DNA of 64,000 bases from an uncultured Chloroflexia bacterium (GCA_963720755.1 CAVRGP010000011.1:1-64000), one strand, 5' to 3'. Counted from the stretch's first letter, positions 19,005 to 40,385 are shown. Program-made: numbers and translations. The notes: generated by a model from the sequence alone, not told the origin.

Positions 19005-19137
19005 ATCGAACGGCGACACCCGCGACGACACCGGCGGCGTCAGCCAGGGGCCCACGTCCACCAAGGATGGTCGGCGCGCCGACCGAGAGTTCGGGGGCGC
19101 ACCGCACGCTTCCAGTCGCGCTGGTACGCTCCGGCGG

Positions 19138-19971: not shown

Positions 19972-20231
19972 CGAGTTCGCTCCCGACGCCCGATGTCCTC
20001 ACCGTTTACGGCGCGAACTGGTGCGGCGACTGTCGCACCGCCCAGCGATATCTCGATATGGCTGGCGTGACCTACCGCTACGTGGATCTTGGGATGGACC
20101 GGGCGGCCCAGTCACTGCTCAGCGAGGCCGGGTATCGGGCCATCCCGATCGTGGTGACGACGGACGGGACCGTTCTGATCGAGCCATCCGTCCGAGAGCT
20201 CGCGGCGGCGCTCGGGACACCTGCCGGCTGA
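19968..20231 (+). CDS. Glutaredoxin/mycoredoxin/NrdH-like protein
   Basis: VYGANWCGDC and IPIVV..DG..LIEPS. ATGA-coupled to the upstream gene. Confidence 0.85.
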   Translation: MTSSLPTPDVLTVYGANWCGDCRTAQRYLDMAGVTYRYVDLGMDRAAQSLLSEAGYRAIPIVVTTDGTVLIEPSVRELAAALGTPAG

Positions 20232-20261
20232 CCCTGGATCGGACGGCGATCGGACGTCGGT

Positions 20262-20606
20262 TCAGTGCAGGCGGTCCTGCCAATCGGGCGGCACGCGACC
20301 CGCCGGGCCGGGAGTCGGCTGGTCGGCGGGGTGCGCTTCCGGCGGCGCCAGTTCAGGTCCGGCCACGCTCTCCTGGCGCGCGAAGTCCCAGAACCAATCC
20401 TCGCCGGGTTCGAAGCTACGGATGACGGGATGGCCGGACTCGGCCGCATGACGACTCGCATGCTGCGACGGCGACGAATCACAACAGCCGATATGGCCGC
20501 AGGCCGCGCACCGGCGCAGGTGGAGCCACCATCCCCCCGCGGCGAGGCATTCGAGGCAGCCGGTGCCGCTCGGCGCTACGTCCGGATCGATCCCCGCGTG
20601 TGTCAT
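20262..20606 (-). CDS. UBP-type zinc finger protein
   Basis: GCLECL..GGWWLHLRRC..CGHIGCCDSSPSQHA..H, SFEPGEDW. Confidence 0.9.
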   Translation of the reverse strand: MTHAGIDPDVAPSGTGCLECLAAGGWWLHLRRCAACGHIGCCDSSPSQHASRHAAESGHPVIRSFEPGEDWFWDFARQESVAGPELAPPEAHPADQPTPGPAGRVPPDWQDRLH

Positions 20607-20691
20607 CTGCGAGCCTCCGTTCGGACGGGCAAATCCTCGGCCGATGAAGTAGGTCCCGGCCCCGCGACCCAGCCCACCTGTGCTCCGTCCG

Positions 20692-20837
20692 GATCGAGAT
20701 TATCCCGATGATCGTACGCGTTCACGGAGACCGTGAAGCGGGTCACGTTCGACATGAAGCCGATGACCCACGAGGAGGAGAAGACGCTCCACGAGCGCAC
20801 CGCCCTCCAGGCCGTGGCCGGTGGTGCGGCCGGCTGA
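20692..20837 (+). pseudogene. C-terminal relic of an arylsulfatase
   Basis: Manual translation DRDYPD / YAFTETVKRVTFDMKPMTHEEEKTLHERTALQAVAGGAAG* resembles the C-terminal tail of large AtsA/B/D-type arylsulfatases. No start codon. Confidence 0.55.
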
Positions 20838-20885
20838 TCGGCCAGGATCGCGGCCGAGCACGTCCCGGCGAGTACGCTTTGCGGA

Positions 20886-21977
20886 ATGACGGATAACGCC
20901 GCCACGCTCGAAGTGCCGCTCGATCCCGCGGCGTGGGGTGTCGATGCCATCGAGTACGAGCGCACGGGATTCCTCGGCCGATCGTGTCTCGCGTTCGGTG
21001 ACACCGTCGCGGTCCCGGTCCTGCCCGGGATCGAGTTGGAAGACGGTGTCGTCGAGGTGGACCTGGCCGTCTCGCGGGAGCGGTCGTTCCAGGGGGTGAT
21101 CTGGCGGGCCGAGGGGAACGAGGACTTCGAGTCGTTCTTTGTGCGGCCGCACCAGGTCGGCAATCCGGACGCGATCCAGTACACGCCGGTGAACCACGGC
21201 GTCTCGAGCTGGCAGCTCTACCACGGTCCCGGTTTCTGGGCCCCGATCACCTTCCCGATCGACGACTGGTTCACGATCCGTGTGGCCTTCGCGGGGGCTC
21301 GTGCTGACATCCATGTCGGCGACCTCGGGTCGCCAGCGTTGCGGATCGCCGAACTCAAGCGGGCGCCGGCCAGCGGACGGATCGGACTCCTGGTCGGCGG
21401 GGCGGGCCTGCGGGTCGCCCGCATCGCCTACAGCCCGTCGCGGCCGGTCTTGGGCGCTCTTCCACAGTCACCAGCGGCGCAGCCCGGCGTGATCCGAAGG
21501 TGGGACGTGTCCGATCCCATCGCCGAGTCGGTGGTCACGGGTCTCGGCCTCCTGCCACCGGACCTCGTGGCGGCACGCTCGTGGACACCCGTCGATGCCG
21601 AACCGTCCGGTCTGCTCGACCTGTCCCGGGTCAACGGGCTGCACGACGGTCGCAACACGGTCCTCGTCCGGACCGCGGTCCGTGCTCCGGACGATCTGGT
21701 GGCCCCGCTCGAGTTGGGGTTCAGTGACCGGGCGACGGTGTACCTCGATGGGCTCGCCCACTTCCGGGGAGACGACGCCTATCGATCAAGGGACTACCAA
21801 TTCCTCGGCAGCATCGGCTTCTACGATACGGTCTACCTTCCCCTTCGGCGGGATCGGAACGAACTCGTCATGGCTGTCTCGGAGGATCTCGGGGGATGGG
21901 GGATCCAGGCCCGGTTCGGGGACGGCTGGCGTTGGCGGCCCGACGGGACGATCGAACGTGAAGTGGGGTCGGCATGA
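20886..21977 (+). CDS. Hypothetical beta-sandwich (ConA/DUF1080-like) protein
   Basis: 363-aa ORF with RPHQ.GNPDAIQY, WQLYHGPG, GFSDR and GWG motifs. ATGA-coupled to anSME. Confidence 0.65.
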   Translation: MTDNAATLEVPLDPAAWGVDAIEYERTGFLGRSCLAFGDTVAVPVLPGIELEDGVVEVDLAVSRERSFQGVIWRAEGNEDFESFFVRPHQVGNPDAIQYTPVNHGVSSWQLYHGPGFWAPITFPIDDWFTIRVAFAGARADIHVGDLGSPALRIAELKRAPASGRIGLLVGGAGLRVARIAYSPSRPVLGALPQSPAAQPGVIRRWDVSDPIAESVVTGLGLLPPDLVAARSWTPVDAEPSGLLDLSRVNGLHDGRNTVLVRTAVRAPDDLVAPLELGFSDRATVYLDGLAHFRGDDAYRSRDYQFLGSIGFYDTVYLPLRRDRNELVMAVSEDLGGWGIQARFGDGWRWRPDGTIEREVGSA

Positions 21978-23338
21978 TCGAGGACCTTCAGGCACCGATG
22001 CGCTCGTCGACCGGGCGGCCGATGCCCCGCGCCTTCCACCTCATGGCCAAGCCGTCCGGGGCGACCTGCAATCTCGATTGCGACTACTGCTTCTTCCTGT
22101 CCAAGGAGATGCTCTACCCGGGCAGCCGCTTCCGGATGGCCGAGGAGCTCCAGGAAACGTATCTGCGCCAGCTTCTCGAGGCGCACCGGGGCATCCCGGA
22201 GGTCATCGTCGCGTGGCAGGGCGGCGAGCCGACGCTCATGGGACTGGATTTCTTCCGCCGTTCGATGGACCTGATCGAACGGTTCAAGCAGCCCGGCCAG
22301 GGCGTCCTCAACACGCTCCAGACGAACGGGACGCTGCTGACCGACGAGTGGGGCGAGTTCCTTGCCGCGAACCACTTCCTCGTCGGGATCTCGATCGACG
22401 GCCCGCGCGACATCCACGACCGCTACCGCGTGGACAAAGGCGGCAAGCCCACCTTCGACAAGGTCATGAGGGGGCTGGAGATCCTGCGTCGCCACGAGGT
22501 CGACTACAACGTCCTGTCGACGGTCCACGCCGCCAACGAGCAGCGCGGCCGCGAGGTCTACCGGTTCCTGCGCGACGAATGCGGCGCCGCGTTCATGCAG
22601 TTCATCCCGATCGTGGAGCGCGCCACGCCCGAAACGCTCGCGGCCGCCAATGCCGGTTGGGGCGACCGTGGCCAGCTCCGGCCCCTGTACGTCCTCGATG
22701 GCAGCCTGGTCACCGATCGGACGGTCAGTCCCGCAGGCTACGGCCGCTTCCTCATCGACATCTTCGAGGACTGGGTGCGGCGCGACATCGGCACGGTGTA
22801 CGTCCAGATGTTCGACACGGCGCTGGCCAACTGGGTGGGCGAACCCGGCGGGATGTGCGTCCACGCGGAGACGTGCGGTTCGCAGCTCGCCCTCGAGCAC
22901 AACGGCGACCTGTACTCGTGCGACCACTTTGTCGAGCCGCGGTTCAAGCTCGGCAACATCCGCGAACTGCCGATGCTCGACATGGTGGCCTCCCCGCAGC
23001 AGCGGAAGTTCGGCCAGGACAAGCGCGACACGCTCACCCGGTTCTGCCTCGAGTGCGATGTCCGGTTCGCCTGTCACGGTGGCTGCCCGAAGGATCGGTT
23101 CGCGACGTCACCGTACGGCGAGGACGGGCTGCACTACCTCTGCCCCAGCTACAAGTCGTTCTTTCACCACGTGACCCCGGTCATGGAGCGAATGCGTGAC
23201 CTGTTGCGAGTCGATCGGGCGCCGGCCGAGGTCATGGCCAGCCAGGTCGCCGCGGACGCGCATCGGGGTCGCAACGACCCGTGCCCCTGCGGCAGCGGCC
23301 GGAAGTGGAAGGTCTGCCACGGGCGCCCCCCGGCCTGA
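21974..23338 (+). CDS. Anaerobic sulfatase maturase (radical SAM/SPASM) with C-terminal SEC-C motif
   Basis: AKPSGATCNLDCDYCFFL, WQGGEPTL, YSCDHFV, C..C.....C.GGCPK, RNDPCPCGSGRKWKVCHG. Confidence 0.93.
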   Translation: MIEDLQAPMRSSTGRPMPRAFHLMAKPSGATCNLDCDYCFFLSKEMLYPGSRFRMAEELQETYLRQLLEAHRGIPEVIVAWQGGEPTLMGLDFFRRSMDLIERFKQPGQGVLNTLQTNGTLLTDEWGEFLAANHFLVGISIDGPRDIHDRYRVDKGGKPTFDKVMRGLEILRRHEVDYNVLSTVHAANEQRGREVYRFLRDECGAAFMQFIPIVERATPETLAAANAGWGDRGQLRPLYVLDGSLVTDRTVSPAGYGRFLIDIFEDWVRRDIGTVYVQMFDTALANWVGEPGGMCVHAETCGSQLALEHNGDLYSCDHFVEPRFKLGNIRELPMLDMVASPQQRKFGQDKRDTLTRFCLECDVRFACHGGCPKDRFATSPYGEDGLHYLCPSYKSFFHHVTPVMERMRDLLRVDRAPAEVMASQVAADAHRGRNDPCPCGSGRKWKVCHGRPPA

Positions 23339-28461: not shown

Positions 28462-28818
28462 CTAGCGTTTCGTCGACTTCGCCGGCTTGGGTGGCAGCGC
28501 TCCCACGTGGTCGAGGGACTTGGCGATCCAGATGCGACCGTCGGCGGTGCCGACGAACGATGGCGGCATCGTGACCCACCCGCTCATCGGTCGCTCGGCC
28601 GGACCGAACGGGCGGGCTCCCGCGATCGCCCCGAGGGTCGCGAGATCATCGCTGGCGAGCTTCAGGCCGATGTCGGCGCCGAACAGGCCCATGAACATGT
28701 TGCCGTTCACGAAGGCGCCGAGGTTGCCGAACATCGGCTTGACCTCGATCCGGGGATCGCCCGGTACGACCGACCTGAATCGAGCCTTGTCGGCCTCGGA
28801 TGGCTTCGGCATCTCCAT
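28462..28818 (-). CDS. TfoX/Sxy N-terminal domain protein
   Basis: KPMFGNLGAFVNGNMFMGLFG, RPMSGWV, LPPK. Confidence 0.85.
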   Translation of the reverse strand: MEMPKPSEADKARFRSVVPGDPRIEVKPMFGNLGAFVNGNMFMGLFGADIGLKLASDDLATLGAIAGARPFGPAERPMSGWVTMPPSFVGTADGRIWIAKSLDHVGALPPKPAKSTKR

Positions 28819-28892
28819 GGTGCTCCTCCTCGGTCCCCCTCTCCATCGCGATGAGGGTACCGAGCGGCGCCAGTGCGTGTGCGGTGCGGTCC

Positions 28893-29246
28893 CTACGCCA
28901 GCGCCGTTCGACGGGCGGACAGCCGGACGATCTCCTCGACCGCCGCCGCGCCGTACCTCCGCGCCCGATCGACCCGTGCGGTGCGAAGGACGTTTCTGAT
29001 CGCCACGAGGGTGTCTCGAGGTGGGCGTCGGACGACGAGGATCCAGGCGATGGGCAGGCCGACCAGCTCGATCGACTCGCCGGGGACGCCGACGTCCATC
29101 AGCAACATCGCGGTCGACTCGGCATCCAGCTGGCTCGACAGCATGGCGACCACGGAGCCGGCCGGATAGCTGGAGCCATCGACCCAGGCAACGGCATGGT
29201 CCGGATCACGGGTTGGCACGGGAGCGGCTGGTGTTCGACTGGTCAT
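28893..29246 (-). CDS. Hypothetical protein
   Basis: Open frame with SD GAGG, divergent from the Hdr-like operon. No family recognised. Confidence 0.45.
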   Translation of the reverse strand: MTSRTPAAPVPTRDPDHAVAWVDGSSYPAGSVVAMLSSQLDAESTAMLLMDVGVPGESIELVGLPIAWILVVRRPPRDTLVAIRNVLRTARVDRARRYGAAAVEEIVRLSARRTALA

Positions 29247-29423
29247 CGTCACGCCTCGATCCGACTCGCCGCCGCGCCGGGCCACGTCCATGTCACCTTC
29301 GGGCGCCGCAGTGCCACGACCTTGGGGCGCGACCGTGAGAAGCGTCTGATAACCGCCGCGCGTCCGACCCGAGACCGACTTCCGTCCTCTTGGCACGGGA
29401 CTCCGTGACTAATGGCTCGTTGG

Positions 29424-29446
29424 ATATATGCGCCTTAGACATATAT
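29424..29446. promoter_or_regulatory. Operator palindrome upstream of the Hdr-like operon
   Basis: ATATATG-N9-CATATAT with perfect arms in AT-rich intergenic DNA. Confidence 0.7.
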
Positions 29447-29523
29447 TCACCTCAGCCTAATAGCAGGCCTGAGCGTCGGCCCACCCGGGACGCGGCGCCG
29501 CCAGATCCGGCGAGGAGCCGCGA

Positions 29524-29898
29524 GTGCCAAACGCGATGAACGACATCGATGAACTCCAGGCGTCGTTGCTTCGGTCGATGGCGAGCGTCCATCGGCTGCG
29601 CATCCTCAGCCTGCTCGGCGAGCGGTCGTGCGAGGTCAACGAGGTCGCTCGTGAACTCGGGATGACCCAGGCTGCCGCTTCCCAGCACCTCGGCGCCATG
29701 CGTGGCACGGGTCTGGTCGAGGCGATCAGGGACGGTCGGACCGTGACCTATCAGCTGAGCGACCCACAGATCCTCGCCGCCTGCGGACTCATGCGGGCGT
29801 TCCTGGTCCGCCGCCTTTCACATCTCGGCGATATCGCGGCGGCCGTGCACGAGCCGAGCCTGGTCCTTACCTCGAACAGTCAGGAGAGCCACCTGTGA
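29524..29898 (+). CDS. ArsR family regulator (possible BigR/SqrR-like thiol/persulfide sensor)
   Basis: HRLRILSLL, AASQHL..MR..GLV, DGRTVTY, and two Cys (SCEV, ILAAC). Confidence 0.88.
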   Translation: MPNAMNDIDELQASLLRSMASVHRLRILSLLGERSCEVNEVARELGMTQAAASQHLGAMRGTGLVEAIRDGRTVTYQLSDPQILAACGLMRAFLVRRLSHLGDIAAAVHEPSLVLTSNSQESHL

Positions 29899-30302
29899 GA
29901 GACAACCTGTCCATCGTCCTGTTCTCCGGCACGGACGACAAGCTCCATGCCGCGGCGACCATCGCCGCCGGAGCGGCCGCCATGGGGACCCCGGTCAGCA
30001 TCCTGCTGATGTACTGGGCCCTCGACGCCTTCCGGGCCGACCGGATCGACAACGATCACGGGCTCGCCTACGACGCGTCGCGACCCCGCTGGAACGAACC
30101 GGTCGAGCATGTCGGCAATATCCCCTGGCTCGAGACGTTCCGGCAGGCCAAGGAGCTCGGCGACGTGACGATCCGCGCCTGCTCAGGCTCGCTCGCGACC
30201 CTCGGGCTCGATGCGACCACGTTGGACCCACTGGTCGATGACGCCGGCGGCATCGCCTCCTTCCTGGCCGATGCCCACGACGCCCAGATCCTGTTCATCT
30301 AG
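29895..30302 (+). CDS. dsrE: DsrE/DsrF/DrsH-like (DsrE2-type) sulfur carrier
   Basis: LSIVLFSGT.DKL.AAA.IA.GAAAMG, AKELG.V.I.AC, G.ASFL. Confidence 0.85.
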   Translation: MRDNLSIVLFSGTDDKLHAAATIAAGAAAMGTPVSILLMYWALDAFRADRIDNDHGLAYDASRPRWNEPVEHVGNIPWLETFRQAKELGDVTIRACSGSLATLGLDATTLDPLVDDAGGIASFLADAHDAQILFI

Positions 30303-30331
30303 TGGCCGCCGCCACGGAAAGGACTCTCGAC

Positions 30332-30706
30332 ATGGTCGATCAGGAACAACACGAGAAGCTGGTGATCATGGCCACCCACGGCCCGGATGACCCGGAGCAG
30401 GCGACCATCCCGTTCGTGATGGCCTGCGCCGCCCTCGCCTCGGATGTCGAGGTCGTCCTGGGCCTCCAGGCGGACGGCGTCTGCCTGGTCCATCAGGGCG
30501 AGGCGGAAACGGTCCAGGCGCCGGGGTTCCCGCCACTCGCGAAGCTGATGGCTGACTACAAGGAGCTCGGCGGCACGCTGCTGGTGTGCGGACCGTGCGT
30601 CAAGAGTCGCGATATCGCCGACGCCCTGGTGCCCGCAGCCGAGGTTGTTGCCGCCGGCCGGTTCGTCGCAGAGGTGATGTCCGCTACAAGCACGCTGACC
30701 TACTGA
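30332..30706 (+). CDS. dsrE: DsrE family protein
   Basis: THGPDDPEQATIPFVMA, LQADGV, LVCGPC.KSR, C-terminal LTY. Confidence 0.85.
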   Translation: MVDQEQHEKLVIMATHGPDDPEQATIPFVMACAALASDVEVVLGLQADGVCLVHQGEAETVQAPGFPPLAKLMADYKELGGTLLVCGPCVKSRDIADALVPAAEVVAAGRFVAEVMSATSTLTY

Positions 30707-30764
30707 ACCACGAGACGAGGTCGGTCGATCGACCGGCCGTCCAACCACGAAGGAGAGTCCCCCG

Positions 30765-31040
30765 ATGACCACCACGACGACCCCGCTGAGCGACAGCGAC
30801 CTCATCGCGCTCGAAAGCGCCAAGGTCGTCGACGCCCGTGGCAGCGCCTGCCCAGGCCCGCTCCTCGAGGCCAAGAAGGCCATGAACACGGTCCAGATCG
30901 GGCAGGTCATCGAGATCTGGTCGAGTGATCCGGGAACCAAGAGCGATATCGGCGCCTGGTCCGGGAAAGTCGGCCACACCTATCTCGGGACGCTGCCTGC
31001 CCAGGGCTACGAGCGAACGTTCGTCGTCCGCCAGAAGTAG
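30765..31040 (+). CDS. tusA: TusA family sulfurtransferase
   Basis: VDARGSACPGP (CPxP), SDPGT..DI.AW....GH. Confidence 0.92.
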   Translation: MTTTTTPLSDSDLIALESAKVVDARGSACPGPLLEAKKAMNTVQIGQVIEIWSSDPGTKSDIGAWSGKVGHTYLGTLPAQGYERTFVVRQK

Positions 31041-31061
31041 CGACGAAGGAGTAAGGCTGCG

Positions 31062-31508
31062 ATGACCACGCTCGTGCCGGAGACGCCGCAGACGGCGGAA
31101 CGGACCTTCGTCCCGCGGATCCTCGTCTTCTCGACGAACAACATCTCCGACCCGGGTATCGACCTGGCCGGAAGCGCCCACATGACCTATTCACCGGGCG
31201 TCGTGGTCATCAGCATGCCTTGCACCAGCGGGATCCGACCCAGCTGGATCGTCCACGCCATCGAGCACGGGTTCGACGGCGTCTTCATCGCCTCCGACGG
31301 CGACGAATGCGCTTACCTCACCGACTGCTCCAGTCGGGCCTCGCGGATCGTCGCGCAGGCGCAGGAACTCCTCGTCAACGATGGCCACGAGTCGTCGCGT
31401 CTGAAGATGGCCGCCATCTGCTCCGTGTGCGCGGAGCCCTTCACCAGACATGTCCAGCAATTCGGCCAGGCCCTCGCAGAGCTCGGCCCATCAGTGGTGA
31501 CGTCATGA
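31062..31508 (+). CDS. mvhD: MvhD/FlpD-like iron-sulfur subunit (atypical Cys pattern)
   Basis: ILVFS..ISDPGIDLAG, PCTSGI, GFDGV.IA, ECAY..DC, RL...ICSVCAEPF. Confidence 0.8.
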   Translation: MTTLVPETPQTAERTFVPRILVFSTNNISDPGIDLAGSAHMTYSPGVVVISMPCTSGIRPSWIVHAIEHGFDGVFIASDGDECAYLTDCSSRASRIVAQAQELLVNDGHESSRLKMAAICSVCAEPFTRHVQQFGQALAELGPSVVTS

Positions 31509-34222
31509 CGGATTACGACGTTCTCGTCGTCGGCGCCGGTATCGGCGGTATGGAGTCGGCCCTCAAGCTCGGCGACATGGGCTACAAGGTCCTGCTCGTC
31601 GAGAAGGAGGCCAGTGTCGGCGGGAAGATGATCCTGCTGAGCAAGGTCTTCCCGACCCTCGACTGCGCCAGTTGCATCTCGACGCCGAAGATGGCGGCCT
31701 CCATCCACCATCCCAACGTGACCACGTTCACCTACAGCGAGGTCGACGGCATCACGCCCGGTGAGGATGGGCACTTCCAGGCGAAGATCACCCGCAAGGC
31801 GCGGTTCGTCGACGAGGCGGCCTGCACCGGCTGCCAGAAGTGCGAGACGGCCTGCACGGTCTCCGTGCCCGACCAGTTCAACGCCGACATGGTCGCCCGC
31901 CACGCGGCCTACATCGCGTTCCCCCAGGCCGTGCCCAAGAAGGCCGTCATCGAGCGAGCGGGCTCGTCGCCGTGCTCGTTCACTTGCCCGGCCGGCATCC
32001 AGGCCCACGGCTACGTGTCGCTCATCCGAAGTGGCGAATATGAGAAGGCGTTCCAGCTCGTCCTCGACGCGACGCCGTTGGTCGGCACGCTCGGACGGGC
32101 CTGCTATGCGCCGTGCGAGGTCGATTGCACCCGTGGCTCGCTCGAAGGGCCGCTGCCGATCCGACGGCTCAAGCGGTTCATCGCCGACGAGCACTACGAG
32201 CGCTATGACGGTCCAGGCGTCGAGATCCCGGAGCCGAACGGCCACCGCATCGCGATCATCGGTTCGGGACCGGCCGGCCTGACCGCGGCCTGGCAGCTGG
32301 CCCGCAAGGGTTATGGCGTGAAGATCCTCGAATCGGCGCCCAAGCCCGGCGGCTTCCTTCGCCTGGCCATCCCCGCCTACCGCCTCCCGACCGAGGTCGT
32401 GGAGCGGGACATCTCCAACGTGACCGCGCTCGGTGTCGAGATCGCCGTGGACTCTCCGGTCGAGGACCTCGAGGGTCTCCACGACGACGGGTACGACGCC
32501 GTGCTCGTCGCGACCGGGACGCCACTGTCGACCCGGATGGGCGTCCCCGGCGACCAGCTCGATGGCGTCCTGAGTGGCGTCTCCTTCCTCCGGGCGGTGA
32601 AGCTCGGCGAGGGGGTCGACCTGCGCGATCGCAAGGTCGTCGTCATCGGTGGCGGCAACGTCGCCATGGATACCGCCCGGACCGCTAGGCGGATGGGTGC
32701 CCGAGATGTCACCGTCGTCTACCGACGGACCCGTGCCGAGATGCCCGCCCACCATGTCGAGGCGGACGACACCGAAAAGGAAGGCGCCGGGTTCGTCTTC
32801 CAGGCCGCACCGGTCGCCGTGATCGACGACGGCAACGGAGCGACCCGTGCCCTCCGCTGCACCAGGATGGCCGCCGGCGCCCCGGATGCCTCCGGCCGAA
32901 GCCGGCCGGAACCGATCCCGGGCAGCGAGTTCGAGATCGACTGTGACGTGATCATCACGGCCATCGGGATGGCGCCCGACGCGGCTGCATTCGGCGGCCA
33001 GGTCCGGGCGAACGCGAACGGATCGATCGTCGTGGACGAGCGAACCCTCCAGACCGATGTGCCCTGGCTATTCGCCGCCGGGGACGTCGTGTCCGGCGCC
33101 TCGGACATCACCCGAGCGACCGGCCAGGGCCGGCGCGCGGCGTTCATGATCGACCGCTGGATCCAGGATCGCACCCTGGATGGGACCGAGGACTTCGACC
33201 TTCGCCTTCCGGTCGTCGACAAGGAAGCGGTACTGGCCCGACAGCAGGCTTACCGGCTGGCGCTGGCGGCCGATCCGAGCGAAGTCATCAGCCCTGCGCC
33301 GACCGACTTCCGCGAGGTCGAGCTGCCGATGACCGAGGCCGAGGCGCGCTATGGCGCCGGTCTCTGCCTGGACTGTGGCGTGTGCTCTGAATGTGGCGAG
33401 TGCGTCGACGCCTGCCCGGTCGACGACTGCATCGACCTGCGGGCGCGCGACGAGACGATGGATGTCGACGTCGGTGCCGTCGTCGTGGCGACCGGCTTCA
33501 AGTTGTTCGCCGCCGACCTCAAGCCGGAGTACGGCTTCGGCACCTTCAGGAACGTGATCACCGGCATGCAGATGGACCGTCTGCTCGCACCGACCCGCCC
33601 GTTCAACACGATCCTGCGGCCGGGCGACGGCAAGGTCCCGGAGCGGATCGCCTACGTCCTGTGCACCGGCTCGAGGGATGAGACCGTCGGCAACCCGCTC
33701 TGCTCGCGGTTCTGCTGCATGTACTCGATCAAGCAGAACCAGCTGATCATGGGTGCCCTGCCGATCGCCGACGTGACGGTCCACTACATGGACATCCGTG
33801 CTCCCGGCAAGCGCTACGACGAGTTCTACGAACAGGCCAAGGCCATGGGCGCGAACTACGTCAAGGGCCGGGTCGCCAAGATCACCGAAAAGGACAACGG
33901 CGACCTCATCCTCCGCTACGAGGATATCGAGCACGGCGGACAGCTCGTGGAAGCGGAGTACGACCTGGTCGTGCTGGCCGTCGGGGTCCAGCCCAACAGC
34001 GACGCACAGGCCCTCTTCCCGGAAGGCGGCCTGGCGACCGACGAATATCGCTACGTCGCGGAGACCGACGAGGACTCGAACCCAGGTCAGACCAGCATCC
34101 CCGGGGTGTACGTCGCGGGCGCCGCATCCGGCGCCAAGGACATCGCCGACTCGATCCTGCACGCAGGTTCGACGGTGGCGCAGGTAGCGGCCTACCTGGA
34201 GAGGGCGAAGGTGCCGGCATGA
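31505..34222 (+). CDS. hdrA: HdrA-like flavoprotein with inserted GltD/NfnB-type NAD(P)H oxidoreductase module (HdrL-like)
   Basis: GAGIGG, FPTLDCASC, CTGC..CE.AC. Insert has SPCSFTCPAG, GRACYAPCE..C.R, GSGPAG and GGGNVA..YRR. Then CLDCGVCSECGECVDACP, CTGSRD...CSRFCC. Confidence 0.9.
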   Translation: MTDYDVLVVGAGIGGMESALKLGDMGYKVLLVEKEASVGGKMILLSKVFPTLDCASCISTPKMAASIHHPNVTTFTYSEVDGITPGEDGHFQAKITRKARFVDEAACTGCQKCETACTVSVPDQFNADMVARHAAYIAFPQAVPKKAVIERAGSSPCSFTCPAGIQAHGYVSLIRSGEYEKAFQLVLDATPLVGTLGRACYAPCEVDCTRGSLEGPLPIRRLKRFIADEHYERYDGPGVEIPEPNGHRIAIIGSGPAGLTAAWQLARKGYGVKILESAPKPGGFLRLAIPAYRLPTEVVERDISNVTALGVEIAVDSPVEDLEGLHDDGYDAVLVATGTPLSTRMGVPGDQLDGVLSGVSFLRAVKLGEGVDLRDRKVVVIGGGNVAMDTARTARRMGARDVTVVYRRTRAEMPAHHVEADDTEKEGAGFVFQAAPVAVIDDGNGATRALRCTRMAAGAPDASGRSRPEPIPGSEFEIDCDVIITAIGMAPDAAAFGGQVRANANGSIVVDERTLQTDVPWLFAAGDVVSGASDITRATGQGRRAAFMIDRWIQDRTLDGTEDFDLRLPVVDKEAVLARQQAYRLALAADPSEVISPAPTDFREVELPMTEAEARYGAGLCLDCGVCSECGECVDACPVDDCIDLRARDETMDVDVGAVVVATGFKLFAADLKPEYGFGTFRNVITGMQMDRLLAPTRPFNTILRPGDGKVPERIAYVLCTGSRDETVGNPLCSRFCCMYSIKQNQLIMGALPIADVTVHYMDIRAPGKRYDEFYEQAKAMGANYVKGRVAKITEKDNGDLILRYEDIEHGGQLVEAEYDLVVLAVGVQPNSDAQALFPEGGLATDEYRYVAETDEDSNPGQTSIPGVYVAGAASGAKDIADSILHAGSTVAQVAAYLERAKVPA

Positions 34223-35961
34223 CCGAGCAGGAACGGCGGATCGGGGTCTACGTCTGCCATTGCGGCGGCAACATCTCCGACTACGTCGACGTCGACCAGG
34301 TCGTCGCGGCCGCCCAGGGTGAACCCGGCGTCGTCGTCGCCCGCCAGATGATGTTCGCCTGCTCCGATTCCGGCCAACAGGAAATGGAGCGTGACATCGA
34401 GGAGCAACAGCTCGACGGCATGGTCGTCGCCTCGTGTTCACCGAAGCTCCACGTCGTGACCTTCCGCGGTGTGGCCAAGCGAGCCGGACTCAACCCGTAC
34501 GAGTACACCCAGGTCAACGTCCGCGAGCAGGCGTCGTGGATCCACTCGGACGACGCCCAGCAGACGACCGACAAGGCCATCCACCTGGTCAAGGCCGGGA
34601 TCGCCAGGACCCTCCTGACCGAACCACTCGAGCCCATCGTGGTCGAAACGACCCAGCGGACCCTCGTGGTCGGCGGGGGCGTGGCCGGACTGCGTGCGGC
34701 GATCGGCCTGGCCGACATCGGCCTCGGGGTCTTCCTCGTCGAACGCGAGCCGGTCCTCGGCGGCCGGGTCGGGACCTTCGGCGCGATGTACCCGACCGGC
34801 AAGAACGGCCGGGAGCTCATCGCCGAGCTGGTCGATGGCATCCGGCAGCGACCGTCGATCCGCGTCTTCACAGAGGCGGAGATGACCAGCAAGTCCGGGA
34901 CGTTCGGGAACTACGAGGTCGGGATCCGGGTCGGTGGAGCGAACCCGGAGACGCTGACCGTCGAGGTCGGCTCGGTCGTCATCACGACCGGCGTCGATAC
35001 CTACGTCCCCGAGGTGGGAGAGTACGGCTACGGCATCGAGGGCGTCCTGACCCTGCCCGAGTTCAAGGCCAGGATCGACGCGACGGACGGGCCACTCACC
35101 CATGCGGGCCGGCCGGTGCGGAGCATCGCCTACATCTACTGCGTCGGCAGTCGTGAACCGGCGGGCGAGCCGGGCGCGCACGAGTACTGCTCGCGCTATT
35201 GCTGCGCCGCGACCGTCGCCGCATCCGTCCAGATCGCGTCCCGCGACGCCGCCGTGCACCAGTACCACCTGTACCGGGACATGCGGACCTACGGCAAGTT
35301 CGAGACGATGTACACGGATTCGCGCAAGCTCGGGTCCGTCTACCTCAAGTTCGCCGACGACGCCCCGCCGAGCGTTGCCAGCGACGCGGCCGGCAACCTG
35401 CTCGTGACCGTCACGGACGTGCTCACCGGTGGCGAAGAGCTGACGATCCCGGTCGATCTCGTCGTCCTGGTGACGGGGATGATCCCCCGCCAGAACGAGG
35501 AGCTCAACAGCATCCTCAAGTTGCCGGTCGACAAGGACGGGTTCTACAACGAGATCCACCCGAAGCTCCGGCCGGTCGAAACGGTCGTCGACGGCGTGTT
35601 CATCGCCGGCGCCTGCCAGGGACCGAAGAATTCGAGCGAGAGCGTGGGCTCCGGACTGGCGGCGGTGACCCAGAGTGCGGTCATCCTCAAGAAGGGCTTC
35701 GCCGAGCTCGACCCTCTGGTCGCGGTCGTCGATACCGATGCCTGCACGGCCTGCGGCGTGTGCCTCGACGCCTGCCCGTACGGCGCCATCGACATGCACA
35801 CCGAGGGCGGAACGTCGGTGGCGGCCATCAGCGAGTCGGGCTGCAAGGGTTGTGGCGGGTGCGTCCCGGTCTGTCCGGAGAACGCGATCGACCTGCTCGG
35901 CTACACCGATGCGCAGATCACCTCGATGATCGACAAGCTCCTGGAGGTTTCGGTCGCATGA
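34219..35961 (+). CDS. hdrA: HdrA-like flavoprotein (second paralog)
   Basis: IGVYVCHCGGNI, VASCSP, NVREQ, GGGVAG, CVGSR...CSRYCC, HPKLRPV, and a C-terminal 2x[4Fe-4S] ferredoxin. Confidence 0.92.
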   Translation: MTEQERRIGVYVCHCGGNISDYVDVDQVVAAAQGEPGVVVARQMMFACSDSGQQEMERDIEEQQLDGMVVASCSPKLHVVTFRGVAKRAGLNPYEYTQVNVREQASWIHSDDAQQTTDKAIHLVKAGIARTLLTEPLEPIVVETTQRTLVVGGGVAGLRAAIGLADIGLGVFLVEREPVLGGRVGTFGAMYPTGKNGRELIAELVDGIRQRPSIRVFTEAEMTSKSGTFGNYEVGIRVGGANPETLTVEVGSVVITTGVDTYVPEVGEYGYGIEGVLTLPEFKARIDATDGPLTHAGRPVRSIAYIYCVGSREPAGEPGAHEYCSRYCCAATVAASVQIASRDAAVHQYHLYRDMRTYGKFETMYTDSRKLGSVYLKFADDAPPSVASDAAGNLLVTVTDVLTGGEELTIPVDLVVLVTGMIPRQNEELNSILKLPVDKDGFYNEIHPKLRPVETVVDGVFIAGACQGPKNSSESVGSGLAAVTQSAVILKKGFAELDPLVAVVDTDACTACGVCLDACPYGAIDMHTEGGTSVAAISESGCKGCGGCVPVCPENAIDLLGYTDAQITSMIDKLLEVSVA

Positions 35962-36206
35962 ACGCCCCGAATCGCGAACTCCGCGAAGTCATCCGCGAAG
36001 AACCCGTCATGCGGGCCAGGATCCTCGAGTTGCTCGAAGCCGAGCCGAGGACCGTTCCCGAGATCGCCACGGCGATGGACTGCCCGACCCACGAAGTCCT
36101 GTTCTGGATCATGGGCATGCGCCGGTACGGCCGGGTCCGCGAGGTCAAGGGCGTGACCGACGAGGGCTACTTCCGCTACGAAGCCATCGGGAAGGATCCG
36201 TCATGA
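35958..36206 (+). CDS. Small winged-helix-like protein embedded in the Hdr-like operon
   Basis: 82 aa, ILELL..EPRTVPEIA...EVLFWIMGMRRYG. ATGA overlaps on both sides. Confidence 0.75.
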   Translation: MNAPNRELREVIREEPVMRARILELLEAEPRTVPEIATAMDCPTHEVLFWIMGMRRYGRVREVKGVTDEGYFRYEAIGKDPS

Positions 36207-37387
36207 CCACCCTCGTCGACACCAACCTGCTCAACGATCTGCAGCGGTACGGCGCGGCTGACGTGTCGGCCTGCTTCAGCTGCGGGACCTGCACCGCGAG
36301 CTGTCCGCTGGTCAGCAACGACGCCACCTTCCCGCGCCGGATGATCCGGTATGCGCAGGTCGGCATGCGCGACCGACTCCTCTCGAGCAAGGAACTGTGG
36401 ACGTGCTACGCCTGCGGCGAGTGCTCGGAAACGTGCCCGACCCAGGCCGAGCCGAGCGAATTCATGGCAGCGGCACGACGGTACGCCATCGCCAACTACG
36501 ACCGGACCGGACTTGCCCGGACGATGTACACGCGGCCGGTCCTCGGGACCATCTTCGCGGTCGTCCTGGCGGCGTTCTTCGCCCTGTTCATGTACGCCGG
36601 CCACGGCCCGCAGAGCGCGGAGTCGCTCGACATCTTCGGGTTCATCCCCGAAGAGCTCATCCACAACATCGGGATCGGGGTCATGGTCCTCGTCTTCGCG
36701 GCCGGCCTCGTCGGCGTGGCCACGATGGCCCGAGCCGTCAGCCGGGACGGCGGGGTCGGCCTGCGCTCGATGTTCGGTGGGCGTGCTGCCCTGCGGCGAA
36801 CCGCGGGCGCCCTGTGGACGTCCCTCGCCATCGAGACCCTTGGCCAGCGACGATATCGCGACGACTGCGATACGGATGCGGCCGAGCAACCCTGGTACCT
36901 GCGGCGGTGGTTCCTCCACGCCGCGACGATGTGGGGCTTCCTGGGCCTCCTGGCCGCGACTGTCCTCGACTACGGCCTGGCCATCGTCGGGATCAAGGCC
37001 ACGGGCACGCCGGTGCCGATCTGGTACCCGGTCCGACTCCTCGGCACGGTCGCCGGGCTGATGCTCGTCTACGGCGCGACGATGTTGATCGTGCAGCGCT
37101 ACCGCGGAACGGAGCGCTCGGTCCGCCATTCGACCGCGGCCGATTGGACGCTGCTTGCCCTCGTCTGGATCACCGGTGTCACCGGTTTCGCCCTGGAGCT
37201 CGCCCTGTACCTGCCGAGCGCCCCCGCCTGGGGATACTGGGTCTTCCTGTTCCATGTCGCGATCGCCATGGAACTCGTCATCCTCGCGCCGTTCATGAAG
37301 CTGGCGCACGCGGTCTACCGACCCGTGGCGCTGTTCTTCCTCGCCCTCGCGGGCACGCCCGCGGAGCCCGGACCCGAGAGTGCGTGA
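36203..37387 (+). CDS. QmoC-like HdrC-type 2x[4Fe-4S] domain fused to a membrane (heme b) anchor
   Basis: CFSCGTCTASCP and CYACGECSETCP, then ~6 TM helices with His in WFLHAA, LFHVA and KLAHAVYRP. Confidence 0.85.
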   Translation: MTTLVDTNLLNDLQRYGAADVSACFSCGTCTASCPLVSNDATFPRRMIRYAQVGMRDRLLSSKELWTCYACGECSETCPTQAEPSEFMAAARRYAIANYDRTGLARTMYTRPVLGTIFAVVLAAFFALFMYAGHGPQSAESLDIFGFIPEELIHNIGIGVMVLVFAAGLVGVATMARAVSRDGGVGLRSMFGGRAALRRTAGALWTSLAIETLGQRRYRDDCDTDAAEQPWYLRRWFLHAATMWGFLGLLAATVLDYGLAIVGIKATGTPVPIWYPVRLLGTVAGLMLVYGATMLIVQRYRGTERSVRHSTAADWTLLALVWITGVTGFALELALYLPSAPAWGYWVFLFHVAIAMELVILAPFMKLAHAVYRPVALFFLALAGTPAEPGPESA

Positions 37388-37437
37388 CTGAAACCGTCCG
37401 ACCACGTCAACGACAGCACCGACCTAGGAGGTCTGAC

Positions 37438-37932
37438 ATGACCGCAAGCCTGCCCCAAGTCTCCCTCGAGCACCACGATCGATTGATGCACCACCTCGAC
37501 ACGATGCCCGCCGTCGGCGACCTGATCGGGACGGCGTCCGTCGCCGAGTTGCGCCCGCGGGTCGACGAAGTGGTGGCGTTCCTCGACGGCTTGCTGATCC
37601 CGCATCTCGAGGCAGCCGAGCGCACGCTGTACCCGGAGCTCGAGCGGATGCTCCAGAACCGTCACTCGATGACACCGATGCGCCGTGAGCACGGTGAGAT
37701 CCGGAAGCTCGTGGCCGAACTCGTCCAGTCGCAGGGCCAGCTCGCGAGCGGGACCATGACGACGAGCCAGACGATCGCACTGCGCCGGGTGACCTTCCGG
37801 CTGTATGCGCTGCTCAAGGTCCACCTCGCCGAGGAGCGCCTGTACGAGGCGATCATCGAGCACGGGGTGTCGGCCGAGGAAGCCGAGAAGCTGGCCGTCG
37901 CGATGGACCACAGCGGCATCACCGCCTTCTGA
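37438..37932 (+). CDS. Hemerythrin-like (HHE) domain protein
   Basis: SD AGGAGG. HHDRL, HLEAAE..LYP, MRREH, HLAEE. Confidence 0.82.
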   Translation: MTASLPQVSLEHHDRLMHHLDTMPAVGDLIGTASVAELRPRVDEVVAFLDGLLIPHLEAAERTLYPELERMLQNRHSMTPMRREHGEIRKLVAELVQSQGQLASGTMTTSQTIALRRVTFRLYALLKVHLAEERLYEAIIEHGVSAEEAEKLAVAMDHSGITAF

Positions 37933-37963
37933 CGTCAACCGCCCGATAGGGACTCGAAGCGCC

Positions 37964-37980
37964 TATGCTCTTGAGGCATA
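37964..37980. promoter_or_regulatory. Operator palindrome at the PadR start
   Basis: TATGC-N7-GCATA, with the same TATG-N9-CATA geometry as the 29427 site. Confidence 0.6.
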
Positions 37981-38438
37981 TGGACGACGGATCGAGCAAC
38001 CGCCGAGGCGCCGGCAAGGACGGGTCGGGTCGCCTCGCATCGGACCTGGACGACGCGGGGGTCCCGGTCCATCGAGGCTGGGCCCCGCTGAGTGGACGCC
38101 ACCGCTGGATGGAGCCGTTCGTGCTCGTCCTGCTGGCCGGCGGCGGCTCCCACGGCTATGCCATGACCGCCCAGCTGGAGGAGATGGGGATCACCGGTGG
38201 TCCGGTCGATATCGGGCAGGTGTATCGAACCCTCCGCGACCTCGAGGCGACCGGTCAGGTCACCTCGTCATGGTCGACCGAACCCGTCGGTCCGCAGCAC
38301 CGTGACTACGAACTGACCGCGGCCGGGTACGCCGCGATCGACGCCTGGGCCGCGGTCATGAAGGAGCGCGCGAGGCTCATCGGCGAGTTCAACGCCAGGT
38401 ACCTCGAAGCCGTGACGACCCCGCGCCGGCGACGGTGA
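37980..38438 (+). CDS. PadR family transcriptional regulator
   Basis: LVLLA.G.SHGY, GQVYRTLRDLE..G.V.S.W, YELT..G. Confidence 0.88.
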   Translation: MDDGSSNRRGAGKDGSGRLASDLDDAGVPVHRGWAPLSGRHRWMEPFVLVLLAGGGSHGYAMTAQLEEMGITGGPVDIGQVYRTLRDLEATGQVTSSWSTEPVGPQHRDYELTAAGYAAIDAWAAVMKERARLIGEFNARYLEAVTTPRRRR

Positions 38439-38445
38439 CGGTCAG

Positions 38446-38937
38446 CTAGAGGGGTTCGGCGCTGGCATGGTCGATGCCGTGAGCCAGCCTGTCCTTCTCC
38501 TCCGGGCTGAGGTTCCGGTCCAGCACGCCCAGGTAGAGTTCCTCCTCGGCGAGGTGGACCTTGAGCATCGCGTAGAGCCGGTAGAGGACGCGCCGCAACC
38601 CGATCTGATCGGCCTCGGTCAGGCGCTCTTCCGCGACCAGCGCACTGTATCCGCACAACGATCCGAACAGGCCGCGCAGCCGGTCATGTTCCTGCCGCAT
38701 CGGCGCCATGGAGTGGCGCTTGTCCATCACTTCTTCCAATCGCCCATAGAGGGTCGTTTCGATCGCCTCCATGTGCGGCACGAGCCGTCCGATGATGAAG
38801 CTGCACTCCTGCTGGAAGGTCGCGGAAAACACCTCCGGCGTGACGTTGCCGATCATCTCGGCGAGTTCCGGAAGGCGGTCGACGTGCGGGTCGATCTCGT
38901 CGTTGTGTTCGTGGGACGTTTCTGGCAACGACCGCAT
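38446..38937 (-). CDS. Hemerythrin-like (HHE) domain protein, paralog of 37438
   Basis: PHMEAIE..LY, RHSMAPMRQEH, LRRVLYRLYAMLKVHLAEE. Confidence 0.82.
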   Translation of the reverse strand: MRSLPETSHEHNDEIDPHVDRLPELAEMIGNVTPEVFSATFQQECSFIIGRLVPHMEAIETTLYGRLEEVMDKRHSMAPMRQEHDRLRGLFGSLCGYSALVAEERLTEADQIGLRRVLYRLYAMLKVHLAEEELYLGVLDRNLSPEEKDRLAHGIDHASAEPL

Positions 38938-39059: not shown

Positions 39060-39575
39060 TCAGGCGGTGATCGCCGCAGGAACGCCGCCGGTCTCGAGCG
39101 ACCCTGTTCGCTCGAACGGGCCGGTGATGATGACTTCTGCGGTCTGCTCCAAGCCGCTCCCGTCCCGAACGACATAGGCGTGGTGGACGGTCGTCATCCC
39201 GCTCGACAGGGTGGCCCCGACCGAGCAGTACTTGGTCGCCGACAACTCGATCGCCCGGCGAACCGCCTCGACATCGATCCCTTCGCCCTCCAGGACGTGG
39301 GTCACGTCGATCCGGGTGAACGCGTTCGGGTGGCCTTCCTGCTGATCGCCCGTGGCCTCGACCCGGTACCCGGACACCGGCTGGCGCTTCTTGCGCAGGA
39401 TCGAGATGACGTCCATCGCGGTGCAGCTGGCCAACGCGATCGGGATCAGTTCGGACGGACGCATCCCGGCATCGCCGCGAGCGTCATCGAGGATGAATGC
39501 GTGCCCGCTCCCGGAACGAGCGCTGAAGCGAAGTCCCTCGCCTTCGAGGGTGATGGTGGCTGTCTTGGCGGTCAC
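39060..39575 (-). CDS. OsmC family (YhfA-like) protein
   Basis: GMRPSEL...LASCTAMDVISILRKKR and RAIELSATKYCSV. Confidence 0.9.
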   Translation of the reverse strand: MTAKTATITLEGEGLRFSARSGSGHAFILDDARGDAGMRPSELIPIALASCTAMDVISILRKKRQPVSGYRVEATGDQQEGHPNAFTRIDVTHVLEGEGIDVEAVRRAIELSATKYCSVGATLSSGMTTVHHAYVVRDGSGLEQTAEVIITGPFERTGSLETGGVPAAITA

Positions 39576-39612
39576 GTTTGGCTCCTGGCCTTCTGTCGCG
39601 GATCCGCGACGA

Positions 39613-40011
39613 TCATCGGATGGACTGGACGACCCGCTCGAGGCGGGCTTTCGCGTCCTGCGCCACGGTCTGGATGGCGGGGGCGCCGACGATGCCGAGG
39701 GCGGCCATGGGGTCCATGGCCTCGACGATCGTCTCACTGCCCTCCTCGCGGAGGACGACATTGCAGGGGAGGAGTGTGCCGACCGACGGATCGGCCTCGA
39801 TGGCGCGGTGGGCGAGCGGCGGGTTGCAGGCGCCGAGAATCAGATATGGCGCTTGCTCGATCCCGAGCTTGTCCCGCATCGTCGCCTGGACGTCGATCTC
39901 GGTCAGCACCCCGAACCCCTCAGCCTTGAGGGCGGCGACGACACGCGGCCGAACCTCGGCCACCGTGCCGTGGACGCGGGTCCCGAACGTGAACCCCTGG
40001 GTGGCCGTCAT
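39613..40011 (-). CDS. DUF302 domain protein
   Basis: GFGVLTEIDV, YLILGACNP.LAHRA, LLPCNVV. Confidence 0.92.
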   Translation of the reverse strand: MTATQGFTFGTRVHGTVAEVRPRVVAALKAEGFGVLTEIDVQATMRDKLGIEQAPYLILGACNPPLAHRAIEADPSVGTLLPCNVVLREEGSETIVEAMDPMAALGIVGAPAIQTVAQDAKARLERVVQSIR

Positions 40012-40385
40012 CCGGCGAGCCCCGGTCGGGCGTTCGGACGGGCCTCCGATTCGGCCGAGGCATAGGCACGGGTGTGGGTCGTTGATCGTCGCTCGACGAT
40101 GCGGTGGACGATGTCGCAGGCGTCGAGGATGGTCGGCTCGGCGATCCGGTAGAGGATCGCGTTGCCGGCACGACGGCTCTGGACGAGGTCGGCGTGACGC
40201 ATGACCGCGAGGTGCTGGCTGGCGTTCGGCAGGGTCACCCCGATCCCGTCCGCCAGCTCGGACACCGATCGTTCGCCGTCGCGCAGGGCGTCCAGCATCA
40301 TCAGCCGTTTCGGGTCGGTCAGGACCTTGCAGAGCTCGGCGTGGAGCCGATAGCGCTCCGTCTCGGGATCGTGGTCTTCAGGCAT
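40008..40385 (-). CDS. ArsR family regulator with two Cys
   Basis: HAELCKVL.DPKRL, NASQHLAVMR, ILDAC. Confidence 0.9.
   Translation of the reverse strand: MPEDHDPETERYRLHAELCKVLTDPKRLMMLDALRDGERSVSELADGIGVTLPNASQHLAVMRHADLVQSRRAGNAILYRIAEPTILDACDIVHRIVERRSTTHTRAYASAESEARPNARPGLAG

Follow-up and report, generated by a model that had tools for sequence, protein, structure and literature searches.

What kind of redox system is encoded by an operon that joins Qmo-like and Hdr-like subunits to sulfur carriers of the TusA/DsrE type? The question is raised by the first 64 kb of contig C11 (hereafter the window, 64,000 nucleotides in full) in the genome of an uncultured Chloroflexia bacterium (3.01 Mb in 15 contigs, 93.6% complete, G+C about 68%), whose nearest protein and locus relatives are Limnocylindrales and 'Chloroflexia' metagenome-assembled genomes of the Chloroflexota. 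Ten of its genes code, in this order, for an ArsR-type regulator, a DsrE2B-like and a DsrE3-like protein, TusA, MvhD/FlpD, a fusion of HdrA with GltD (HdrL), a second HdrA, a winged helix-turn-helix (wHTH) protein of 82 amino acids (aa), a QmoC-like membrane anchor and a hemerythrin (Table 1). We found that these genes belong to a widespread TusA-linked family with two alternative output modules, and we propose, with a probability of about 0.5, that the complex would be an inducible sulfane-sulfur handling system joining carrier-bound sulfur, NAD(P)H and quinone pools, coupled at the HdrA flavins.

The ten genes form one tightly packed, ArsR-headed and translationally coupled operon. Calling of open reading frames (ORFs) returned ten on the + strand between 29524 and 37932, with the same limits as in the original prediction, and their order is borne out by Pfam and NCBIfam domain calls. 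The five start/stop overlaps from which an operon had been proposed all read as claimed (GTGA at 29895; ATGA at 31505, 34219, 35958 and 36203), and a sixth, not listed before, links the genes of the QmoC-like anchor and the hemerythrin (GTGA at 37384). The short spacers 5' of tusA and of mvhD contain Shine-Dalgarno-like GGAG. A scan for sigma-70 promoters and terminators over positions 28800-38600 gave nothing above chance. The sequencing runs that match the sequence are soil-metagenome DNA of one study, with small shares elsewhere, and no RNA run is listed among them.

The HdrA::GltD architecture is common, with 5142 proteins at E<=1e-30 among 1.84 billion representatives and full-length fusions of about 900, 1100 and 1500 aa. 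A profile scan of one genome per species gave 80 loci, on which the ten window proteins were mapped by tblastn. In 14 of these (L005-L012, L014-L016, L025, L068, L080) the fusion is at least 50% identical to that of the window, and in all 14 tusA lies directly 5' of mvhD-hdrL-hdrA, with the 82-aa gene next if the contig reaches that far; L013, a fifteenth locus truncated at the fusion, branches basally in the tree described below. The other 65 loci, at 35-45% identity, are ordered hdrL-hdrA-mvhD and lack tusA. Going by their record titles, the 14 loci come from Chloroflexia, Actinomycetota (including Gaiellales and Thermoleophilia), Ignavibacteriales, Aminicenantes, Bacteroidales, Zixibacteria, Deferrimicrobium, Acidobacteriota and a Thermoplasmata archaeon, and the family spans about 8 phylum-level labels, with one archaeon.

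In a phylum sample of 400 other Chloroflexota genomes, HdrL occurs at E<=1e-150 in 51 of 401 (the window's own counted), 17 of them at 58-86% identity. Its distribution is patchy (0/3 other genomes of the same genus, 7/23 of the same family). All 18 loci from 17 Chloroflexota genomes have tusA next to mvhD, which brings the loci outside the window with readable upstream DNA to 32 (14 + 18), every one with tusA directly 5' of mvhD; the conserved linkage to tusA on which the original prediction hung is thus found throughout. Conversely, a TusA profile that matches 32 of the 33 listed family loci (the miss is L013) matches 0 of the 65 TusA-free HdrL loci. A profile of the 82-aa protein matches 28/33 family loci versus one weak match in the 65 TusA-free loci, its misses being four loci on cut contigs and L013, which is differently built. 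The complement and position of DsrE genes vary: they lie upstream, between mvhD and hdrL, or downstream.

The output module comes in two forms, 11 of the 32 loci having a QmoC-like anchor and 16 an HdrC with an HdrB-like protein, while 5 are cut (7, 10 and 1, respectively, in the 18 Chloroflexota loci). The HdrC + CCG protein pair stands in place of QmoC in L007, L010, L016, L068, L080 and L132-L141; in the first five, Pfam identifies after the 82-aa ORF an HdrC-like 2x[4Fe-4S] protein of ~100 aa, a CCG protein of ~320-400 aa and often a DsrE. Methanogen HdrB has two CCG motifs binding noncubane clusters, instead of which the HdrB-like protein of these sister loci has a single one, C-x34-CC-x33-C-x2-C, conserved in 24 sequences. 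Both forms coexist in one Chloroflexota genome of the window's family (G084, loci L131 and L132), each followed by a hemerythrin gene.

In a maximum-likelihood tree of 43 HdrL proteins, obtained by a quick search and with support from the Shimodaira-Hasegawa-like approximate likelihood-ratio test (SH-aLRT) only, the TusA-linked family is monophyletic (28 rows, SH-aLRT 100). All QmoC-form rows except L015 make up one clade of 11 that includes the window (SH-aLRT 96), comprises Chloroflexota and two Actinomycetota, and is nested among HdrCB-form rows. On this topology the membrane form of the window arose from a soluble HdrCB form by replacement of HdrCB with QmoC. The QmoC-like protein of L015, at 27% identity, stands far apart and seems to have been acquired independently. 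The lack of HdrB had been put forward as a defining trait, which does not stand: because the QmoC form is nested inside HdrCB forms, 'no HdrB' is true of this copy and not of the family, in which 16/32 homologous loci carry HdrC and a CCG HdrB-like protein.

The redox core was compared with two canonical aprA-qmoA-qmoB-qmoC loci. In HdrL, a complete GltD/NfnB-type NAD(P)H-FAD-2[4Fe-4S] module interrupts the inserted ferredoxin domain of a QmoA/HdrA-like FAD domain, so that HdrA residues 1-45 and 620-902 flank the module at 128-657; the PDB matches of HdrL are NfnB/StnA-type chains at 154-633 and HdrA at 622-900, and Cys107-117 and Cys621-637 are invariant in the alignment. Of the canonical subunits, QmoA is the one nearest to HdrL, at 34-36% identity over the two HdrA segments. 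The 580-aa HdrA, aligned to 5ODC_A, consists of an N-terminal 4-Cys domain, an FAD domain and a 2x[4Fe-4S] ferredoxin domain at the C-terminus; neither the inserted ferredoxin domain nor the cysteines of FPTxDCxxC are present, and sixteen Cys are invariant in the family alignment. It matches canonical QmoB end-to-end at 25% identity, with 118-125 bits as against 403 bits to methanogen HdrA. Since HdrL keeps the inserted ferredoxin domain and HdrA the N- and C-terminal domains, the two are, as judged from these alignments, complementary halves like QmoA and QmoB. MvhD, the sole copy in the whole genome and with five invariant Cys among 23 sequences, aligns to the C-terminal MvhD domain of canonical QmoB (25% identity). 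The anchor combines an HdrC-like 2x[4Fe-4S] domain with a NarI-like cytochrome b domain of about 6 hydrophobic segments, and its eight iron-sulfur (FeS) Cys and His239, His351 and His369 are kept in at least 90% of 20 sequences. By these comparisons the plan is Qmo-like and the sequences are nearer to methanogen HdrA.

Subunit by subunit the complex corresponds to type I QmoABC: it has two flavoproteins of HdrA type, an MvhD module and an anchor in which an HdrC-like FeS domain is fused to a dihaem cytochrome b. It differs in having MvhD as a separate gene, a GltD/NfnB insert in the QmoA-like subunit, an extra winged-helix protein and attached tusA/dsrE genes, in the 24-36% identity of its subunits, and in an anchor that scores under the cut-off of the NCBIfam qmoC model and branches apart from the true QmoC proteins. 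Four bona fide QmoC proteins, encoded next to aprA-type loci in sulfate-reducer genomes, score 476-508 bits on NF038018 versus 207 for the window's anchor, to which they are 24-28% identical; in a tree of 20 sequences they form their own clade, separated by a branch of 2.31 from 16 HdrL-linked QmoC-like proteins. Six-frame family searches of the whole genome gave no match to aprA or dsrA (Sat was not searched for), and both were over cut-off in 0/5 other QmoC-form genomes. The original prediction was to fall if the subunits nested within bona fide QmoABC and aprAB occurred elsewhere, and neither the QmoC tree nor these searches bear that out. The idea that the locus is an ordinary QmoABC serving an adenosine 5'-phosphosulfate (APS) reductase encoded elsewhere would account for the common module plan and for qmoC being the anchor's best NCBIfam match; against the score gap, the separate clade, the low identity to the canonical subunits and the unmatched aprA and dsrA of a 93.6% complete genome, we regard it as extremely improbable.

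Canonical Qmo also occurs as QmoAB-HdrBC, without QmoC (PMC10504309), an alternation that mirrors that of QmoC and HdrCB in the TusA-linked family. A type II Qmo, known from Ammonifex degensii and Vulcanisaeta moutnovskia, has subunits nearer to HdrA than to type I Qmo, is found in organisms with or without Dsr/Apr and has been described as of unknown role (Neukirchen et al., 2023; PMC10504309). The 580-aa HdrA, with 403 bits to 5ODC_A versus 118-125 to type I QmoB, would fit type II as described there. The part of that article dealing with type II Qmo is silent on TusA/DsrE linkage, GltD insertion and a wHTH subunit (PMC10504309).

The same six-frame searches placed the other proteins reported missing from the window elsewhere in the genome or nowhere, in agreement with that report. 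CCG domains are found on contig C15 only and none on C11, in a 707-aa FeS/CCG protein encoded beside an acyl-CoA dehydrogenase and an electron-transfer flavoprotein, and in a 1051-aa GlcD/GlcF-like fusion. A single GcvH-family gene, for GcvH or LbpA, lies 660 kb from the operon (C11:701221). A [NiFe] hydrogenase with small and large subunits (C13:138100-147600, L147) has a partner of cNMP-binding/Fer4_22/NAD-binding/DHODB-FeS composition, resembles NAD(P)-linked group 3 'sulfhydrogenase'-type enzymes, and has a 2-oxoacid:ferredoxin oxidoreductase after it. Some 8 kb beyond, a second sulfur locus (C13:150261-153747, L145) encodes a hemerythrin (- strand), a DsrE2B-like protein, TusA, a full-length DsrE2, a second TusA and a 400-aa SQR-like flavoprotein, and a third TusA-domain/DsrE pair is present at C6:203999-205080. 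Sulfane sulfur and ferredoxin are both plausible in this cell because an SQR-like gene with TusA/DsrE and a 2-oxoacid:ferredoxin oxidoreductase are present.

Of the three sulfur carriers of the operon, the first DsrE aligns along its whole length with PDB 2QS7 (E 7.5e-17), a structure named DsrE2B by Tanabe et al. (PMC11094781), and we therefore call it DsrE2B-like; a paralogue at 52% identity lies on C13. The GTG start of the DsrE3-like gene overlaps the stop of its predecessor by one base (30302), and the true start may be the ATG at 30332, because homologues align only from residue 16-18. In TusA, Cys29, Pro30, Gly31 and Pro32 are invariant in 23 sequences, the CPxP motif being present. DsrE2B/DsrE3/TusA carriers beside Hdr-like genes, with ArsR-type regulation nearby, are shared with sHdr clusters (PMC11094781; PMC4175335), and in Metallosphaera cuprina the same trio lies next to hdr-like genes, DsrE3A and TusA carrying thiosulfonate (PMC4175335). 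The window's complex, however, has no sHdrB1/B2, no sHdrC1/C2 pair and no operon-linked LbpA, its HdrA is of full length with ferredoxin domains and not of the 349-aa sHdrA type (6TJR, 106 bits), and NAD(P)H and quinone modules are added. The claim that the locus matches neither QmoABC nor sHdr is therefore well founded, and so is its reading as a Qmo module plan combined with a built-in NAD(P)H module and sulfur carriers.

HdrA fusions with NfnB/GltD are already in print, as HdrL of Desulfobacterium autotrophicum (PMC12142623) and as HdrA9-11 of ANME-1 (PMC9012536). The window's HdrL shares with them the module of ~500 aa within the inserted ferredoxin domain of HdrA, but the TusA-free group differs in its hdrL-hdrA-mvhD order, in having neither tusA nor the 82-aa protein, and in that many fusions reach 1100-1500 aa. 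An HdrA flavin core with MvhD, shared with methanogen HdrABC-MvhAGD and Desulfovibrio FlxABCD-HdrABC, points to a bifurcation-type electron path, although the operon has no hydrogenase, no Flx subunits (Flx being compared by description only) and no HdrB. Flx-Hdr is NADH-linked and acts on the sulfur-carrier-like DsrC (PMC10504309).

In the sulfane-sulfur handling system that we propose, an HdrL/HdrA heterodimer would stand in place of the methanogen HdrA homodimer, NAD(P)H would enter or leave at the GltD flavin, and MvhD with the FeS chain would join this flavin to the HdrA flavin(s). The high-potential arm would lead here from the HdrC-like domain over haem b to (mena)quinone, and in the HdrCB sister form to a protein di/persulfide at HdrB. 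A third partner at the HdrA ferredoxin domain, either ferredoxin and/or sulfane sulfur on TusA/DsrE, would permit flavin-based bifurcation or confurcation; a bifurcation between NADPH, quinone and persulfide had been conjectured in the original prediction. The carrier-bound sulfur could come, for example, from the genome's SQR-like enzyme, and the Cys-bearing ArsR would switch on persulfide/thiosulfonate handling in these aerobic soil bacteria. The ligand residues for the cofactors are invariant in HdrL, MvhD and HdrA, and the Cys/His of the QmoC-like anchor are conserved. Whether sulfane sulfur would be reduced or oxidised cannot be read from sequence.

Several observations weigh against this proposal. 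No sulfur-chemistry catalytic site was identified in the QmoC form, which has no CCG protein, molybdopterin or sirohaem. Because tusA is retained where HdrB has been lost, TusA cannot simply be the substrate of HdrB and has to contact the conserved core. No Cys of the 82-aa protein is conserved in the family alignment, and the single conserved Cys of the ArsR sits elsewhere than the conserved Cys pair of the BigR/SqrR persulfide sensors, the BigR score being far under cut-off. The patchy distribution fits an accessory and not a core energy function, and the HdrL tree carries the limits of a quick search. Together with the regulator and the stress-type neighbours, the patchiness is easier to reconcile with an inducible role in sulfane-sulfur handling than with core respiration. 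Could the carriers then be bystanders? A Fix/EtfABCX-like job done with Hdr parts would send electrons from NAD(P)H downhill to quinone and uphill to ferredoxin, or the reverse, and TusA/DsrE would not be redox substrates at all but serve regulation, Fe-S/cofactor sulfur supply or protection of the complex. This would agree with the NAD(P)H and quinone modules, with the retention in the 580-aa HdrA of the N-terminal and C-terminal 2x[4Fe-4S] domains of the bifurcating methanogen HdrA, with the want of a sulfur-chemistry site once HdrB is replaced, and with the ferredoxin-dependent 2-oxoacid oxidoreductase of the genome; the potentials of NADH, quinone and ferredoxin also suit bifurcation, as in FixABCX. 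It leaves unexplained, however, why tusA adjoins mvhD in 32/32 family loci versus 0/65 related HdrL loci that also have ferredoxin domains, and why DsrE genes and a Cys-bearing ArsR stand beside the complex, and we hold it to be possible though unlikely. That the carrier genes and the redox complex merely share a promoter is favoured by the differing complement and position of DsrE between loci, but the tusA-mvhD adjacency is invariant over about 8 phylum-level labels with one archaeon while the surroundings change, which makes such a chance neighbourhood very unlikely.

A further reading gives the complex a sulfur-oxidising direction, in an sHdr-like role without HdrB or LbpA, with the sulfane sulfur of the carriers as a mid-potential donor whose electrons would be split to quinone and NAD(P)+. 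With S0/HS- at about -270 mV, the potentials of S0/HS-, menaquinone and NAD(P)H would permit this. Menaquinone lies at about -75 mV and NAD(P)H at about -320 mV (PMC3333476). By the matches to 2QS7 and 3MC3, the three carriers are those of sHdr-associated clusters (PMC4175335), and the SQR-like gene with TusA/DsrE elsewhere in the genome points the same way. Yet there is neither an HdrB-type noncubane cluster nor an extra lipoate-binding protein beyond the one distant GcvH, no sulfite-handling enzyme was seen in the operon, and the sequence does not give the direction; oxidation by this route appears doubtful, as does the specific claim that TusA/DsrE sulfane sulfur, as mid-potential donor of a flavin-based bifurcation, would reduce quinone and NAD(P)+ at once. 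If this bifurcating reading were true, abundant soil and freshwater aerobes among the Chloroflexota and Actinomycetota would not need reverse electron flow, since sulfur that stems from sulfide could yield NAD(P)H directly, and the swap of HdrCB for QmoC would have adapted an anaerobic, soluble, disulfide-linked enzyme to respiratory membranes.

The original prediction had called this an undescribed system, which stands in part. No description of a TusA-linked HdrL/HdrA/MvhD/wHTH family with QmoC or HdrCB output was found in the full-text literature, a scope outside which most subscription journals and supplements fell. By contrast, HdrA-NfnB fusions, type II Qmo, the QmoAB-HdrBC alternation and DsrE/TusA next to Hdr-like genes are already in print; what is added here is the nested phylogeny, the single-CCG HdrB, the contrast in tusA between 32/32 and 0/65 loci, and the candidate operator described below. 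Complexes of Qmo/Hdr type have a central place in sulfate reduction and methanogenesis, and here one is encoded in aerobic soil bacteria with neither pathway. The family is large and widespread, the 82-aa subunit specific to it alone having 1870 cluster representatives, and if TusA-bound sulfur is its redox partner, uncultured lineages of great abundance would have an unrecognised link of sulfane-sulfur trafficking to NAD(P)H and the quinone pool. The exchange of HdrCB for QmoC, both of which occur in G084, offers a natural comparison for the 'third partner' of Qmo-type complexes, a question that dates from the first description of QmoABC (PMC3333476).

Table 1. Features of the operon and its immediate surroundings, in window coordinates
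Feature	Position	Strand	Evidence or remark
AT-rich inverted repeat TGGATATATG-N9-CATATATTCA, candidate ArsR operator	29421..29449		10-nt arms, 90% complementary
ArsR/SmtB-family regulator, 124 aa	29524..29898	+	Pfam HTH_5 47 bits; NF033788 72 bits
DsrE2B-like sulfur carrier, 135 aa	29895..30302	+	PF13686 45.7 bits, N-terminal part only
DsrE3-like sulfur carrier with CGPC motif	30302..30706	+	PF02635 53 bits; PDB 3MC3 (DsrE3A, S. solfataricus) E 6.8e-6
TusA sulfur carrier, 91 aa, active-site Cys29 in DARGxACPGP	30765..31040	+	PF01206 64.5 bits, cut-off 28.6
MvhD-type [2Fe-2S] electron-transfer protein, 148 aa	31062..31508	+	PF02662 95 bits
HdrL-type subunit, 905 aa	31505..34222	+	PRK12771 at 128-657, HdrA2 at 620-902 (NCBIfam)
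HdrA/QmoB-like subunit, 580 aa	34219..35961	+	403 bits to M. thermolithotrophicus HdrA 5ODC_A
Stand-alone winged-helix protein, 82 aa	35958..36206	+	weak wHTH; AlphaFold model, predicted local distance difference test (pLDDT) 88.4
QmoC-like membrane anchor, 394 aa	36203..37387	+	NF038018 207 bits (207.2), cut-off 300; PF02665
Hemerythrin-domain protein, 182 aa	37384..37932	+	PF01814; start overlaps qmoC-like stop
PadR-family regulator	37965-38438	+	conserved neighbour 3' of operon
Second hemerythrin, convergent	38446-38937	-	conserved neighbour 3' of operon

The 82-aa protein is presumed to be a structural subunit, because of its constant position between hdrA and the output genes; a small regulator is the alternative. 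A wide structure search with its model gave generic winged-helix matches only (Z 8.5-11.2), neither DsrD nor any other specific relative being prominent, and the cluster representatives counted above, at E<=1e-5, are annotated as hypothetical, 'MarR' or 'DprA'. A role as a DsrC-like thiol carrier was rejected for want of a conserved Cys. A complex prediction of HdrA, MvhD and the 82-aa protein with TusA, using their own alignments and with HdrL outside the model, scored 0.01 and gives no verdict.

The regulator scores below the NCBIfam cut-offs for BigR, TsoR and CmtR (38.9 bits on the BigR model, cut-off 155), and in the ArsRs of homologous loci only Cys87 (helix 5, 'ACGLMR') is conserved and Cys36 is not. 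A two-Cys sensor of the BigR/SqrR type is thus unsupported, by both the score and the one family-conserved Cys. The inverted repeat ~75 bp 5' of the arsR start is inferred to be a candidate operator of this ArsR-type regulator. Similar palindromes, ATA(T/C)ATG-N7-10-CAT(A)TAT, lie upstream of arsR in L005, L125, L129 and L130, and one between arsR and tusA in the Zixibacteria locus L016; L127 and L128 showed none.

Downstream, a hemerythrin homologue also follows the complex in L005, L125, L126 and L129-L133, and the PadR gene with a convergent hemerythrin follows the QmoC-form operon in seven relatives (L005, L125, L126, L127, L128, L129, L131). The neighbours are otherwise unrelated from locus to locus, with recurring genes of sulfur/thiol-stress type: OsmC, DUF302, rhodanese, CsoR-like, YgaP-like transmembrane, cysteine-synthase-type enzymes and ThiS-ThiF-rhodanese. 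Just 3' of the window's operon, a convergent unit on the - strand (39060-40385) encodes an OsmC-like protein (39060-39761), DUF302 (39613-40011) and a second ArsR (40008-40385), which aligns with the ArsRs beside the HdrCB-form loci L138 and L140 and has the same conserved Cys. L135 is flanked by OsmC, DUF302 and rhodanese, and L005 by OsmC.

In the Thermoplasmata archaeon (L080, 3873-6774) the operon adjoins a cysteine-synthase-type pyridoxal-phosphate enzyme, a JAB peptidase and a ThiS-ThiF-rhodanese fusion, a set that resembles thiocarboxylate-dependent cysteine synthesis. Near HdrCB-form or distant members we observed DUF134 and paired MinD/CbiA-type P-loop proteins with 4Fe-4S motifs (L010 7994-10229; L007 18425-20271; L015 17257-18086), in L015 together with NifB/X-like Nitro_FeMo-Co domains; these neighbours may be Fe-S maturation helpers. 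On the 5' side of the window's operon, positions 18973-23338 hold a gene of the phosphoenolpyruvate-mutase family, an ORF without Pfam match and a radical-SAM/SPASM protein with a terminal SEC-C motif, all unrelated to the operon. Finally, in two related Chloroflexota genomes the HdrCB-form operon is followed by a 544-aa GltD-type flavoprotein, encoded separately and ending in a ferredoxin domain (L138 10560-12194; L140 10412-12046).

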